The notes under the pieces: generated by a model
Seen by the model: only the letters and a program-made list of their open reading frames with translations
What the model was told of the DNA's origin: nothing
Database searches by the model: none
Assembly: GCA_026413945.1 (NCBI GenBank)
Contig: JAOAJX010000002.1
Span: 4,618-68,617 of the forward strand
Direction: 5' to 3'
DNA from: Candidatus Iainarchaeum sp.
GTDB lineage: Archaea > Iainarchaeota > Iainarchaeia > Iainarchaeales > DTGL01
Length of the DNA stretch: 64,000 nucleotides
Translations under genes and position numbers: made by a program
In this document: positions 38,248 through 63,909 of the stretch, in pieces
How positions within the stretch are numbered: the first letter of the stretch is position 1
How the letters are laid out: every line of letters starts with the position of its first letter

Positions 38248-39612
38248 TTATTTAGCACGAAAAACAATAAATTTTTTTCTGCAGATTGCAGAAATAGCCC
38301 TTTTTGTACTTTTAATTATAAATGATAAGAAATAAATCAAATCTTCCAAATTAGGCAAAATTTCTATCTTAAAGCCAAGGATTCTGTATTTTAAGTATAG
38401 ATACACAAAGCCAATGTATGTGCTTGCTATCTGCGATGCCAACAATCCATAAACGCCAAAGTTTTTAGTAAGCGCTAAGCCTAAAACCAAAGTAACTATG
38501 AGTGATATAATTGAGCTTTTGATAGATAAATCAATCCTTTTTAGCATTGTGCATACACAATTGGCCATTATTAAAAGAGAAGCACCAAAAAGCCAAGCCA
38601 TGAAAAGAGGCAACAGCAAATATGCCTCATTATACTTTGGCAAAAATATGTTAAGTATTAGCGGCGCAAAAATCAACGCAAAAAAGCCGAGAGTTACACT
38701 TGCTATCAGAGAAAATTTAAGACCTTTTGATACCAAGCTGGCCAAATCTCTTCTGCTTTTTGCCCTTTGGCTTGCGAATGGCACTATAACATCAATTAGT
38801 GCTAATGTTGGTATTTGCACAGCATAAACAGAAATTTTCTCGGCAATATAGTAAAGACCCATTGTTGCAGAGCTTAAAAATAGACCCATGTAAAAAAGAA
38901 CAGCTTGTATATTTGCCCTCTGTAAAATGTTTGAGACAAAAAGTTCTTTAGCACATTTTTTAATTTCTTTGAATTCTATGTCTTTTTCCTCAAACTTTTG
39001 CTTGCTAAACATTGCGATATAAAATATGAAGCCAATTGTTACTGAAATTATTTTAGCGTAAATTGGTCCCGAAACATTGTACCCCAAAAAAACTACAAAA
39101 ATAAATGCAAACGCAAAGCTAAGGAAGTTCTCGATAGCGGTAACTATCATTACTTTGCCAAAGCTTTTCAAGCCCTTGAAAAGTGCTTCAAAGAGAAGAT
39201 AAAACGGAAAGAAAAGGAAGAGTACGGATGCAGTGCTAAATAGCTTAGCATCACCTCTGCCAATGAGAGAAAGCAAGTGCCCGGAAAAAAGATAAAATAC
39301 AATGAACATAAAAAAGAAAATTGGTATTAGAACTTTTGCAAAGAATAAGAAAAGCGCTCTTGATCTTGCCCTTGGAATATAAACGCAAAGCAGCTGGTAA
39401 AAGACATCAGCGCCAAAAACGTAAACAATATTTCCAATAAATGCAAGCACAAACATTGCTATGCCATATTGTGTAGGCCCAAGGGCATTTGCAATTATAT
39501 AATTGTATAAAAGGCCCGTGACAAGCATTGCAATTCTTGTAGCATAGGAAAATGCTGTGCTTTTGGCAAAAAGCCAAGATTCATCGTTACTCATAAGATT
39601 ACCATTTCTCAA
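38248..39612 (-). CDS. polysaccharide/oligosaccharide flippase (Wzx/MOP family)
   Basis: About 12-14 TM segments; LGPTQYG, GLYYIAEKI; adjacent glycosyltransferases. Confidence 0.8.
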   Translation of the reverse strand: MRNGNLMSNDESWLFAKSTAFSYATRIAMLVTGLLYNYIIANALGPTQYGIAMFVLAFIGNIVYVFGADVFYQLLCVYIPRARSRALFLFFAKVLIPIFFFMFIVFYLFSGHLLSLIGRGDAKLFSTASVLFLFFPFYLLFEALFKGLKSFGKVMIVTAIENFLSFAFAFIFVVFLGYNVSGPIYAKIISVTIGFIFYIAMFSKQKFEEKDIEFKEIKKCAKELFVSNILQRANIQAVLFYMGLFLSSATMGLYYIAEKISVYAVQIPTLALIDVIVPFASQRAKSRRDLASLVSKGLKFSLIASVTLGFFALIFAPLILNIFLPKYNEAYLLLPLFMAWLFGASLLIMANCVCTMLKRIDLSIKSSIISLIVTLVLGLALTKNFGVYGLLASQIASTYIGFVYLYLKYRILGFKIEILPNLEDLIYFLSFIIKSTKRAISAICRKKFIVFRAK

Positions 39613-59522: not shown

Positions 59523-60182
59523 TTAGTGAGAGCGATTCTCAAGTATTTTATTTAGTGCGTTAATTTCCATCTGCAGCAAATCCCGAATTTCACCTTTTGC
59601 GCTCTTTATTTCTTGTTTTAATCGTTCCATTTCAGCTTTAATTTCATTTCCTGGCTTTTGTGACCAACTATTAAATTTCTCAAGATAAGCTTTGATAAGT
59701 TTTCTCTGCCTTGGATCATGAAGCTCTTGTGCAGCATGTGGCGTTTTCCTCAATAAGGAAATGGCCTCCCTTTCATGCCAACTGCCAGTTGCTTTAATTT
59801 CACCAATAACGGTTCTTATTGATTGTTCTCCAACTTTAAGCTTTCTAGCAAGCTCTCCTTTACTCCTAACGCCTTTTAATATTTGTTCTACAACTTTTTG
59901 TCTAAGAGCAGCTAGTCTTCTTCTTTCTTTAATAATAATTGCCCTTTTATGCTCAGCAACAATCGACATTGTTTCTGGCTCTAAAGATAAGCGGAAAAGA
60001 TCTCTTTGTACAGCGTCTTGGCTTATTCCCAGCATTGTCGCGAGTTCTTTTGTTGGTATTCCTGGCCTTCTAGTTATAATTTCAATCAATTTCTTGCGCC
60101 TTTCCGCAATGTCTGACCGCCTCAATTTTGGCAACCTGAAAGGCTCTTTTGATGTCATTCCACGATTCTTGCTTATTGGCAT
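59523..60182 (-). CDS. orphan tandem-HTH protein (paralog A)
   Basis: HTH1 PGIPTKELATMLGISQDAVQRDL; HTH2 SKGELARKLKVGEQSI; shared C-terminal helical hairpin. Confidence 0.7.
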   Translation of the reverse strand: MPISKNRGMTSKEPFRLPKLRRSDIAERRKKLIEIITRRPGIPTKELATMLGISQDAVQRDLFRLSLEPETMSIVAEHKRAIIIKERRRLAALRQKVVEQILKGVRSKGELARKLKVGEQSIRTVIGEIKATGSWHEREAISLLRKTPHAAQELHDPRQRKLIKAYLEKFNSWSQKPGNEIKAEMERLKQEIKSAKGEIRDLLQMEINALNKILENRSH

Positions 60183-60183
60183 C

Positions 60184-61209
60184 CTATTTTCTCCTTATTA
60201 GATCACCCAAGCTAAAGCGCTTTTTTTCTTCTGGCTCTTTTTCTTTTTGATCGCCCTTATATGCCCAGCGACCGCCTGCTTGCACATCCTCGGTAATTAC
60301 GTCTTCAAGCACTTCACTGGTGTCTTTATGGCTTTCTGTCTCAAATAAGCTTCTGCGCTTGCTTTTCTTCTTTGCGATTGACAAAGCAAGGAAGATGGCA
60401 ACAACCAGCAAAACCAAGGTTAAGAAAATAGCACTATTTTCAAGAGTAAGAAAACCAAATGCTGGAGTCTTTTTTTCTTCCATTTTTTCCTCAACCTTTC
60501 CGACTCTTTCTGTCAAAACAGTAATTTGTTCATTTAGATCATTATACTGAGCTTTTGCTTCTGAAAGCGATGCCTTTTGCTCATTAAGTGAATCATTTGT
60601 GCTTGAAAGGCTTGTGCTTAGCTGATCAACCTCAGCTTCCAAATCTTGCAATGATTTAGACAATGACTGCAGCTCATTTTTGAGCGATGAAACTTCTGCT
60701 TCATTATTGCTTAGTTTGGTTTCGAGTGATGATGTTTTATCTTTAACCGCATTTATTTCACTCTTAAGGGAATTCAGCTCTGATTTAAGTGAGCTTACAT
60801 CTCTGTTCAAAGCATCAAAATTCGAGGCACTTGCAACCTTGAAAACATTAAAAGTTACAGAATCTTTGCTTTTAGTTGAATTAGCTGCTAAAAGACGTAT
60901 TTCAAGCTCATATTTTCCTGCCTTTAAGGGATTTAGCAGAAGCACAAGGCTTTTATCCCCCAAAGGCGAATATTCCTTATAATAGGCAACATATTCTGCA
61001 TTTGTCTCAACACCTAGCTTTTGAGTGAATATAACCTTATCACCCAAAAGCACACGTATCTCATCAAAGCCGGTTTCGGAAATTTTAGCAAAAGCTGAGA
61101 AACTCGTGCCTTCTGGAACATTTTCTGGCAAAATAAGATTCAATGCAAAAGCATTGGTTAGGAAAAACCATAAAACAAATAATACAAAAGCCCTTTTTAA
61201 AAAAACCAT
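60184..61209 (-). CDS. exported Ig-like plus coiled-coil protein with TM anchor and RWAYKG tail
   Basis: Signal peptide, about 120-aa heptad region, TM, cytoplasmic tail; SD GGTGA-TTTT-ATG. Confidence 0.75.
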   Translation of the reverse strand: MVFLKRAFVLFVLWFFLTNAFALNLILPENVPEGTSFSAFAKISETGFDEIRVLLGDKVIFTQKLGVETNAEYVAYYKEYSPLGDKSLVLLLNPLKAGKYELEIRLLAANSTKSKDSVTFNVFKVASASNFDALNRDVSSLKSELNSLKSEINAVKDKTSSLETKLSNNEAEVSSLKNELQSLSKSLQDLEAEVDQLSTSLSSTNDSLNEQKASLSEAKAQYNDLNEQITVLTERVGKVEEKMEEKKTPAFGFLTLENSAIFLTLVLLVVAIFLALSIAKKKSKRRSLFETESHKDTSEVLEDVITEDVQAGGRWAYKGDQKEKEPEEKKRFSLGDLIRRK

Positions 61210-61285
61210 AAAATCACCCTCCTGATTTGAGCTCATTGCTGCTTTGTTTGTGAAAAACCACTATAATTAAGATATGAGGTATTTA

Positions 61286-61316
61286 ATATATCTTACGGAA
61301 ATTATGCTAAATTTCC
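61286..61316 (-). promoter_or_regulatory. TATA plus upstream palindrome GGAAATT-N6-AATTTCC
   Basis: Perfect 7-6-7 inverted repeat at 61297-61316 abutting the TATA region; near-copy at 62065-62098. Confidence 0.6.
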
Positions 61317-61333
61317 TGTAGCAATAAAAAGCG

Positions 61334-62044
61334 CTAATCTCGCCTCTTCTCGAGTATTTTTTTTAGGGCGTTGACCATCATCTGAAGCTTGTCACGCTCT
61401 TCACCACTGGCTCTTTTAATTTCCAAATTAAGTCTTTTTATCTCGCCATCAATGGCTGGTGTTGGTCTATCCTTCCATTCGGCAAATTTCTCAAGGTAAG
61501 TAGTTAATAGCATTCTTTGCCTCTTATCCATTAATGGCATTTCTCCAACGGCTGATCTTGCAAAGTTTAGTCTTGCTACAAGTTCCTTTTCATAATCGCT
61601 TCCTTTTGTCATAATCTCCCTTACTAAGCTATGAAGAAACTCCTTGCCTATGCCCAGGGCTTTAATGAGTTCTTCCTGACTTAAAATATTGCGCCTTATC
61701 AATTCAAGCAGCTCTCTTTTTTTTATTTCCCTCTTCAAACGTTTATTCAATTCCTTGGCTCTCTTACTCTCTAAAACTACTTGCTTTGTTCTCGGATCAT
61801 TTAATAGCTTAGCTATATAAGACTCAACTGTTGACTTTGGCATACCAAGCATTTGTGCAAGTTCTCTGTGTGTTATCGTTGGTCTTTCACGCAAGATTTC
61901 AATAATTTGCATGCATCTCTGCTCTGCTTCTGCCTTGTTGGCCATTCTTCTCCCAAGAGGTTTTCCTTTTCCATGACTATTTGGGCCTAATGGCATCCTT
62001 CTCATCGATGCTGACATAATCATGGCCTCACTAAAAATCAGCAC
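61334..62044 (-). CDS. orphan tandem-HTH protein (paralog B); true start probably further downstream (62023-61996)
   Basis: HTH1 PTITHRELAQMLGMPKSTVESYI; HTH2 SQEELIKALGIGKEFL; C-terminus RQR.L..YLEKF..W...RD.LQM..NAL.KILE shared with paralog A. Confidence 0.7.
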   Translation of the reverse strand: MLIFSEAMIMSASMRRMPLGPNSHGKGKPLGRRMANKAEAEQRCMQIIEILRERPTITHRELAQMLGMPKSTVESYIAKLLNDPRTKQVVLESKRAKELNKRLKREIKKRELLELIRRNILSQEELIKALGIGKEFLHSLVREIMTKGSDYEKELVARLNFARSAVGEMPLMDKRQRMLLTTYLEKFAEWKDRPTPAIDGEIKRLNLEIKRASGEERDKLQMMVNALKKILEKRRD

Positions 62045-62064
62045 AATTATATTCGAAGTAATTT

Positions 62065-62098
62065 ATATATTTAACGGGAAATTGGCTGATAACTACCC
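62065..62098 (-). promoter_or_regulatory. second copy of the promoter motif (ATATATTTAACGGGAAATT-N7-AACTACCC)
   Basis: Aligns with 61286-61316; the second arm has 2 mismatches. Confidence 0.5.
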
Positions 62099-62137: not shown

Positions 62138-62209
62138 GGGCCTGTGGTCTAGTGGTATGACGCCACCTTCACACGGTGGAAGTCAGCGGTTCAATTCCGC
62201 TCAGGCCCA
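62138..62209 (+). tRNA. tRNA-Val(CAC)
   Basis: Anticodon arm CCACC-TTCACAC-GGTGG; GGTTCAATTCC. Confidence 0.96.
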
Positions 62210-62358: not shown

Positions 62359-63909
62359 CTATTTTGCCACAATTACTTTTCCCTTGTGGCCATTTTCCTT
62401 TATTTCAGTGAGCACGGACAAAAGCTGCCATGTTGACCCGGCATAGGCCTTAACAAGAATTATGCTTCTATCACCATATTCAAAGCGCTTCATCACTTCT
62501 ATATCAGCAAATTTATCGCCGATATACTGCCTTGAGTCAGTATTCTTATCCCAGTAGATGTAAATCGACTCGTAAAAAGGCCTCAATGCAGTTTCATCAG
62601 CATAAAGATAAGTTTCTGGCTTTAGTTTTTGCCTTAGATAATCGGCAACCTCTTTATCTGTAACAATGCCATTGGGCATTATTTTAGCAAAAGCAACCCA
62701 CCCAGTCTTGTTTAGCTCAAGCACTGTGCCAAAATTCTCAAGCTCCTGTTTTAAAGCTCCTTCATTCAATTCCCTTGGGAGCCCATAGATGAAAAGGCCG
62801 GCACCTGGCTCAATATCAGCATATATTTTTGAATAATCAACAAGTATCTTGCCATTAGCATATGGCAAAAGTGTCCTGTAAATTTCGGCCCAAGAAAAAT
62901 AAAGAAGCACAACTGAAACAAAAAAAACCACGGCTTCTTTCTTATGCGAAAACAAAAATGAAAACTTATTTGTTTTTTCTTTGCCTTTAATTATTTGGAA
63001 AAGCTCATAAGCACTGAAGTAAGTCATATAAGCAAAGGCCATAAAAAACACTAAGCCAAGCTGGAAATTGCTCACTGGAATATAATAGTCAAAGATTGCA
63101 ACGCTCAAGTAATTTATGGCAAAGGTTATTGCAAGTGCAAATATTGCTTTTGAAATATGGCCTTTGCAGAAATTAAAATAGCGCCTTGCAATAAAAAGAA
63201 TGAAAAGGAAAATAACGCTACTTATGGGTGCTGCTGCAATGCCACCATCAATTATGTATATTAGAAACCCAAGCGCTGATGCGCTTAAGATGAAAAAGTC
63301 AAAGAATGAAAGCTTTGAGGATATTGAAAAAAAGTATGCGATTAGCAAAAGCATAGAAAGAAGCACTATTGAAAGGTAAAGCTTTGCGTAAAGTTCTGCA
63401 TCGGGCAATACCTCAAACCAAGGCCTACCATCATCGTATTTTTGCCCAAAATCAAGACCGATGAGGTTAGCAACATAGTAAACCGAAACCTTTGGAAAGT
63501 GGTTATGGTAGAACTTGCTTGCCTCCCAGTTCTTGTAGTTATCTTCGTAGATTATTGAACCAAACATCCATCTTGGCTTATATTTCACACCAAAGCTTAT
63601 GAATTGGAAAGCGCCTAGGTAAAAGCCAAATGATATTAACACGAGAAAACACACAAGCAACGCTTTTTCATATCGTGAGAAAAAAGTGTGGAGCTTAAAA
63701 AAATAGCCAAAAGCCAAAATCAGCGCGGACAATATAAGCCACGCAAAAGTAACTATGAGCTTTCCCAATGAATAGCCGCTGTAATATGATTTATTTATCG
63801 CATAAAGAGCATTTAGCAATGGCTCATAACTCAGTGCGATTGCAAATAAAAACGCAGCTACTACTGTGAAAACTACAAGCTGAAAGTCAAGCCTTTCCAG
63901 AAGCTTCAT
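62359..63909 (-). CDS. polytopic membrane protein with C-terminal soluble domain, function unknown
   Basis: About 10-11 hydrophobic segments; loop motifs YHNHFPK, DDGRPW, IIDGG. Confidence 0.7.
   Translation of the reverse strand: MKLLERLDFQLVVFTVVAAFLFAIALSYEPLLNALYAINKSYYSGYSLGKLIVTFAWLILSALILAFGYFFKLHTFFSRYEKALLVCFLVLISFGFYLGAFQFISFGVKYKPRWMFGSIIYEDNYKNWEASKFYHNHFPKVSVYYVANLIGLDFGQKYDDGRPWFEVLPDAELYAKLYLSIVLLSMLLLIAYFFSISSKLSFFDFFILSASALGFLIYIIDGGIAAAPISSVIFLFILFIARRYFNFCKGHISKAIFALAITFAINYLSVAIFDYYIPVSNFQLGLVFFMAFAYMTYFSAYELFQIIKGKEKTNKFSFLFSHKKEAVVFFVSVVLLYFSWAEIYRTLLPYANGKILVDYSKIYADIEPGAGLFIYGLPRELNEGALKQELENFGTVLELNKTGWVAFAKIMPNGIVTDKEVADYLRQKLKPETYLYADETALRPFYESIYIYWDKNTDSRQYIGDKFADIEVMKRFEYGDRSIILVKAYAGSTWQLLSVLTEIKENGHKGKVIVAK

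Follow-up and report, generated by a model that had tools for sequence, protein, structure and literature searches.

A duplicated, conserved promoter block ahead of two double-HTH genes in a genome of Candidatus Iainarchaeum

Background

To our knowledge, gene regulation in DPANN archaea is almost entirely unexplored. In a genome of Candidatus Iainarchaeum (0.95 Mb, 37.7% G+C, 21 contigs; hereafter G000), two transcription units that carry genes for double-HTH proteins, here called A and B, begin with closely similar upstream sequences, and the question arises whether these sequences hold an operator through which the HTH proteins control their own genes, or whether the likeness is that of a basal promoter. 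A first-pass annotation of the locus had proposed an operator of the double-HTH proteins with a GGAAATT-N6/7-AATTTCC palindrome at both promoters, and had offered as an alternative that the promoter was duplicated together with the HTH gene before a middle gene was inserted. In the following we examine the shared element within the window, i.e. the whole stretch of 64,000 nucleotides that was analysed (C14:4618-68617), in the remainder of the genome and in related genomes and metagenomic contigs. Positions are those of the window unless a contig is named.

Results and discussion

The locus and its genes

The minus strand carries the genes B, M and A, and tRNA-Val(CAC) (62138..62209), the ancestral neighbour of the M promoter, lies on the plus strand, divergent from B. 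Gene B (61334..62023, minus strand) encodes a double-HTH protein that is a paralogue of A (37-38% identity), and its start is likely either ATG 62017 (with the SD GTGAGG, N8) or ATG 62023 (leaderless). Directly after the B stop codon, and preceding the promoter of M, the sequence has a T5 run (61326..61330, minus strand), which is a probable archaeal terminator of B; AGCGCTTTTT is also found downstream of A. Gene M (60184..61209, minus strand) encodes a protein with a signal peptide, a beta-rich ectodomain, a coiled coil, a TM helix and a cytoplasmic tail, and its SD is GGAGGGTGA (61214-61222). The start codon of gene A (59523..60182, minus strand), which encodes the other double-HTH protein, lies 1 nt past the M stop (TAG-G-ATG), which argues that A is cotranscribed with M and probably translationally coupled to it. 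An Rfam search returned tRNAs as the sole matches.

B matches the Pfam family HTH_24 with 35.7 bits (cut-off 21.9) and A matches HTH_11 with 33.4 bits (cut-off 25), while the second HTH of A scores 24.8 against HTH_28, slightly below the cut-off of 25. An AlphaFold model of A (pLDDT 81) consists of two three-helix HTH units without a beta wing, a long joining helix and a C-terminal three-helix bundle. When this model was searched against the PDB with Foldseek, nothing was found at E below 0.1, the best match being MgaSpn (E 0.2). The presumed recognition helices of A and B are strongly different, so that recognition of one and the same sequence by both proteins is doubtful. Both genes are driven by the promoter block described below, and they are the sole members of their family in G000.

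Some features of the surrounding genes may be recorded here. The HTH unit of A and B matches long tandem-HTH proteins, which have 5-12 repeats and reach about 1480 aa (P0004-P0010, others). Even distant homologs of M retain GRWAYKG and KRFSLGDLI(R/K)R as motifs of the cytoplasmic tail. The genes of the M-A operon are separated by a gap of 1-9 nt (L002, L024-L027, L041, L045; TAG-G-ATG in G000), and downstream of the pair come a convergent 65-aa Cys-rich gene, a ZIP transporter and an EncFtn-like gene. Throughout the genus, tRNA-Val and M are adjoined by a multi-pass membrane protein of 516 aa (62359-63909), whose C-terminal soluble domain is conserved (...WQLLSVLTEIKENG.KGK..VAK) and which no Pfam or NCBIfam family matched.

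A promoter block specific to the locus

The two elements aligned in the first-pass annotation, ATATATCTTACGGAAATT (61286-61303) and ATATATTTAACGGGAAATT (62065-62083), match in 16/18 positions with one extra G/C, and a re-reading of the sequence bore out all of its letters and coordinates for both. It was likewise right in placing each element, one per transcription unit, directly 5' of AT-rich TATA-like boxes on the minus strand. The elements belong to a longer block of ~51 nt, in which AATTTCC(C)GT is followed by TATA-like box 1, TATA-like box 2 and TG(G/A)TTTTT. We refer to the conserved promoter block of M-A (61253..61303; minus strand AATTTCCGTAAGATATATTAAATACCTCATATCTTAATTATAGTGGTTTTT) as P_M and to its paralogous copy ahead of B (62033..62083, minus strand; AATTTCCCGTTAAATATATAAATTACTTCGAATATAATTGTGCTGATTTTT) as P_B. 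Read on the minus strand together with the sequence in front of it, P_M is GGAAATT TAGCAT AATTTCC GT AAGATATATTAAATA... and P_B is GGTAGTT ATCAGCC AATTTCC CGT TAAATATATAAATTA....

The non-TATA part of the P_M block is the box AATTTCCGT (61295..61303, minus strand), a candidate half-site for a regulator, and its counterpart in P_B is AATTTCCCGT. Box 1 of P_M (ATATATTAAATA) occupies 61280..61291 and box 2 (ATCTTAATTATA) 61262..61273, both on the minus strand and about 18 nt apart. Counted from the respective gene start, the ATTAAATA (P_M and the sister-species contig L045, see below) and ATCTTAATTATA / ATATAATT boxes are found at -81/-64 for M and at -51/-31 for B, distances that suit a TATA-like octamer. 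P_M and P_B are identical in 38/52 columns (73%), and a similarity score as high as theirs was reached by 94 of 20000 random pairs of upstream regions of G000 (p about 0.005).

Beyond P_M and P_B, no further site for AATTTCC(C)GTWARATATAT was found in the 0.95-Mb genome at up to 2 mismatches, and in motif scans the shared 18/19-mer was also missing from 12 related genomes and from G004, the only other one of 215 Iainarchaeota genomes with a gene of the A/B family (see below). Intergenic matches to AATTTCC.?GT number only 6 in G000, 3 of them at this locus. A motif scan had been proposed as a way to define a regulon; run with the 18/19-mer, AATTTCC(.)GT and the palindrome, it yielded no regulon outside the two promoters in G000. 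The suspicion that the element might simply be the BRE found at most promoters of this genome can be laid aside, because the generic promoter of G000 is of the TTTAAATA type, with a weak A-rich BRE and without the TTTCCGT box. The two elements are a conserved, duplicated composite promoter block that is specific to the locus.

Conservation in a sister species

The comparison of orthologous M-A promoters rests on one promoter, that of L045, a Logan contig from SRR8371833 that represents a sister species (M 69% and A 59% identical to G000) and carries M-A without B; the Logan contigs L024-L027 and L041 stop short of the M promoter. The M promoter of L045, GGAATTTCCGTTAAATATATTAAATACTTATCATCTTATTTATACTGGTTTTTT, is identical to P_M of G000 in 43/51 positions (84%), and the runs kept between the two include AATTTCCGT (9/9) and ATATATTAAATAC (13/13). 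When the L045 spacer was compared by BLAST with the whole G000 genome, the P_M block was the best match (E 2.4e-9). By contrast, the flanks of the block, the tRNA-Val promoter and the ZIP/65-aa promoter fail to align between the two genomes, and identity at four-fold sites in M and A is only 44-48%. An identity of 84% against this background shows the block to be under purifying selection, which would have kept both of its copies.

The copy ahead of B supports a similar reading. Its 5' 19 nt equal the L045 M promoter, one extra C aside, an indication that the copy is old and has changed little. The four-fold sites of A and B are 29.5% identical, that is, saturated, while P_M and P_B are still 73% identical, and this difference implies that constraint has continued or that gene conversion has acted. 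The HTH helices of A from G000 and from L045 are nearly identical, in parallel with the conserved box.

A predicted binding site upstream of the TATA-like boxes

As our leading hypothesis, which we consider credible but hold tentatively, we propose autoregulation by the double-HTH proteins through the duplicated and selected promoter block. The two blocks would be paralogous copies of one regulated promoter of ~51 nt, which drives M-A and, as a second copy, B. The AATTTCC(C)GT box together with the adjoining AT-rich stretch would form the predicted binding site of a specific regulator, for which the operon's own double-HTH protein A, possibly also B, would be the most economical candidate ligand; binding of A or B to the element is plausible. 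By geometry the box lies upstream of either TATA-like box; relative to the start site, AATTTCC(C)GT would lie at about -45 to -37 with box 1 in use and at about -66 to -58 with box 2. A position upstream of the TATA-like box in use would fit recruitment or activation rather than occlusion. Through the shared block, B and M-A would be tied to one signal.

Probable descent from the tRNA-Val/M intergenic region

The strongest rival to autoregulation, itself possible but in our view doubtful, is that the block is a conserved and duplicated basal promoter without any operator for A or B, kept for its basal strength or bound by an unrelated factor. It would be an old bidirectional tRNA-Val/M promoter, in which box 1 was the reverse TATA of the tRNA, box 2 is the TATA of M and AATTTCC was situated between the TATA and the start of the tRNA, and B would have inherited a copy of it. 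Relatives of the same genus that lack A bear on this reading. Box 2 aligns with their M TATA box ATCTTTAAAAA (-58/-59 from the M start codon), of which it is the positional ortholog, and is found at -64 from the M start codon in G000 and at -57 in L045. Box 1 (ATTAAATAC) aligns with AATTAAAAAC / ATTTAAAAC of the A-less relatives, where this box lies 27-36 nt from the tRNA-Val 5' end, a geometry that makes it probably the TATA of tRNA-Val in reverse; box 1 of the block may be a relic of it. G006 is placed nearest among the A-less relatives by a tree built on the adjacent membrane protein (moderate support, 82/86). There AATTTCCC occurs in the same register, 30 nt upstream of ATCTT, and box 1, box 2 and AATTTCC(C) can be aligned with those of G000 in every column; boxes 1 and 2 align with the A-less G001, G003 and G005 too. 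Judging by these alignments, the block descends from a compact tRNA-Val/M intergenic promoter of the genus. The presence of the heptamer in a genome apparently without A suggests that it may predate A or be independent of it. The difference between the HTH helices of A and B, and the absence of a regulon elsewhere in G000, are further points in favour of a basal promoter.

Three observations weigh against basal function as a sufficient account. In G000 and L045 the tRNA has its own TATA and stands 65-430 nt off, and yet box 1 and the heptamer are still the best conserved parts of the block (the runs of 9/9 and 13/13 above). No such conservation between G000 and L045 is seen at other promoters of the locus. 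Finally, the CGT and ATATAT features are missing from G006 and restricted to the lineage that carries A.

The inverted repeat

The first-pass annotation had envisaged a dimeric regulator on a 7-N6/7-7 palindrome, GGAAATT...AATTTCC, at both promoters. At P_M the inverted repeat GGAAATT-N6-AATTTCC (61297..61316) is indeed a perfect 7-6-7 repeat, whose proximal arm is the conserved box and whose distal arm lies at 61310-61316; it is the only intergenic copy of the perfect motif in G000, the only other perfect palindrome (C11:162124, N8) lying inside a MinD/ParA-like coding sequence, and an extended symmetry, TAC(A)GGAAATT...AATTTCCGTA, can be read there. At P_B the corresponding site, GGAAATT-N7-AACTACC (62077-62097), does have two mismatches as described, but it is at chance level: its degenerate distal arm (62091..62097) matches in 5/7 positions across a different spacer of 7 (p about 0.05-0.09), and the claim of a palindrome at both promoters was not upheld. 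Partner arms of 5/7 stand beside 5.5% of AATTTCC heptamers genome-wide at N6/7 and beside 8.8% at N5-8, and about 50 two-mismatch versions of the palindrome exist in the genome. Perfect inverted repeats (arms of at least 7 bp, spacer 3-9) are present in 38/347 upstream regions of G000 (11%), so that even the repeat at P_M has many equals. In L045 the proximal box is kept 9/9, but the distal arm is missing and is replaced by TTCCGC-N6-GCGGAA, shifted by 4 nt, and repeats of that quality are present in a third of the upstream regions of G000. The palindrome is neither the shared nor the conserved unit, which leaves the reading as a palindromic operator unsupported and a dimer on such a site improbable; on this comparison the distal arm would be a lineage-specific addition or an accident, and not part of a conserved operator.

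The palindrome was also considered as a terminator and rejected, as no T-run follows it and its RNA fold is unremarkable (z = -1.4). Outside the window, other upstream regions of G000 hold stronger perfect repeats (C15:47763-49107, C11:76764), namely a 10-6-10 repeat (AAATAATAGTGCACCTACTATTATTT) in a divergent promoter and a 9-7-9 repeat, TAAATTGGGTTTGTTGCCCAATTTA; these are better operator candidates than the 7-6-7 repeat at P_M.

TATA boxes are nearly symmetric, and this near-symmetry, together with the homology of box 1 to the putative reverse TATA of tRNA-Val in the relatives, would allow box 1 to act in reverse, as in the ancestral tRNA promoter, and to drive an antisense or divergent RNA with its start in the palindrome. 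Such an RNA would run antisense to the 3' end of B at P_M and towards tRNA-Val at P_B. We think it quite improbable: no conserved ORF or Rfam RNA is found on that side, beyond the box G000 and L045 share no conserved sequence, and the hairpin is weak.

History of the locus

Orthologs of M adjoin tRNA-Val in 18 of 31 related genomes. In G001, G003, G005 and G006, all of the same genus, the 516-aa membrane protein, a divergent tRNA-Val and M follow one another in this order, with an HTH gene on neither side. The A/B family itself is confined to G000 and G004 among 215 Iainarchaeota genomes, and G004 is also the sole other carrier among GTDB genome contigs; scans of JGI metagenome contigs and of IMG/VR found no member. 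A search of 1.84 billion representative proteins gave P0003 (from G004), P0011, P0014 and P0040 as the only further full-length members, to which an alignment search added P0151. The M-A pair recurs in G004, L024-L027, L041 and L045, and since the HTH gene directly follows a homolog of M in every locus recovered, M-A is the conserved unit.

B is different in that it occurs in G000 only, with no ortholog found elsewhere. L045 has M-A without B, its spacer yielded no remnant of B in blastn and tblastx searches, and in the assembly of G004, M-A is present but B is found nowhere. Traces of the A start region remain in B: AGGATGCCAWTARGC is common to both, and codons 8-12 of B (AGGATGCCATTAGGC) match AGGATGCCAATAAGC at the A start. 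B is, as far as these comparisons reach, a diverged duplicate of A, a newcomer set between tRNA-Val and M together with a copy of the promoter. The idea that the promoter was copied along with the HTH gene thus agrees with the paralogy of A and B and with their shared blocks, but the insertion of a middle gene has to be reversed, because M is ancestral beside tRNA-Val, M-A is conserved and B is found in G000 only. The likeliest route would be a tandem duplication of promoter-M-A, followed by the loss of the first M.

What stands between tRNA-Val and M varies between genomes. In G004 (L022, C46:1-3100) this slot contains, in place of B, an HExxH membrane protein of 311 aa and a restriction-enzyme-like ORF of 415 aa and looks like a variable island beside tRNA-Val, and in L045 it consists of 430 nt of non-coding DNA. 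Part of the latter (L045:912-1071) resembles two stretches of G000 (C16:38205-38258 and 39082-39178; 74-78%) that form both flanks of a tyrosine-recombinase (Xer-like) gene; the gene is missing in the L045 spacer, for which a mobile-element remnant or a MITE-like insertion may be considered. In four independent assemblies a break falls at the 5' part of M or within it (at the starts of G004:C49 and L041, and at G001:C9/C50 and G005:C36); contig C49 of G004 begins 16 nt ahead of the M start codon, and its start has no overlap with any other contig. These breaks may reflect strain-level variability of the surface protein or of its promoter.

The variability of the slot and the place of B between two direct copies beside a tRNA gene could suggest att-like repeats of a mobile element, or the likeness of two AT-rich promoters could be due to chance, but both are very improbable, the former given that the 0.8-kb segment has no integrase, that the repeats lie outside the tRNA, at least 55 nt upstream of its 5' end, and that B is a paralogue of the resident gene A, the latter given the p of about 0.005 and the independent retention of the block in the ortholog L045.

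Autoregulation through the shared block remains the leading hypothesis, and it can be extended. The family counts about 8 sequences among 1.8 billion representatives, and its A-type genes always stand directly after that of M, a coiled-coil membrane protein of the surface, to which they would be translationally coupled; the exception is B, which has a promoter copy of its own. A and B might represent a new and very rare archaeal double-HTH family that controls its own operon via a site exapted from the tRNA-Val promoter, with the copied promoter keeping both paralogues on one circuit; taken as a whole, this extended scenario strikes us as rather unlikely.

Comparison with known systems

The closest parallels to the proposed site are the upstream sites of archaeal activators, such as Ptr2 of Methanocaldococcus, EarA at the fla promoter of Methanococcus maripaludis (PMC5512572) and Sta1 of Sulfolobus (PMC1635249). 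Like them, the present locus would have a short specific element directly 5' of BRE/TATA, also at the operon of the candidate regulator itself; unlike theirs, this putative site has only one conserved half. A and B form an orphan double-HTH family, in which they differ from Lrp, EarA and Sta1. The genes of autoregulated HTH repressors and activators with palindromic operators (MarR, ArsR, TrmB and Lrs14 types) are similarly preceded by an inverted repeat in their own promoters, but at the present locus the inverted repeat is neither conserved nor shared, and the proteins differ from these types in that they combine a pair of tri-helical HTH units with a helical bundle at the C-terminus and show no wing in the model.

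With respect to its origin, the locus recalls segmental duplication with subfunctionalisation, in that A and B each stand behind the same block and B keeps traces of the A start. It departs from the usual duplication of a promoter with its gene in that the promoter copies (73%) are far better preserved than the genes. Finally, the homology of the block to a tRNA-Val/M region with two facing TATA boxes resembles the compact bidirectional promoters of archaea, although in G000 and L045 the block has been parted from the tRNA and is still conserved.

Conclusions

The locus is a small but useful case, which leaves current models unchallenged. It provides a compact cis-element of 9 specific bases plus an AT-rich box, in two natural variants and one ortholog, and supplies with A and B an obvious pair of candidate regulators. 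It also illustrates how a promoter duplicated together with a regulator gene can afterwards be conserved much more strongly than that gene.
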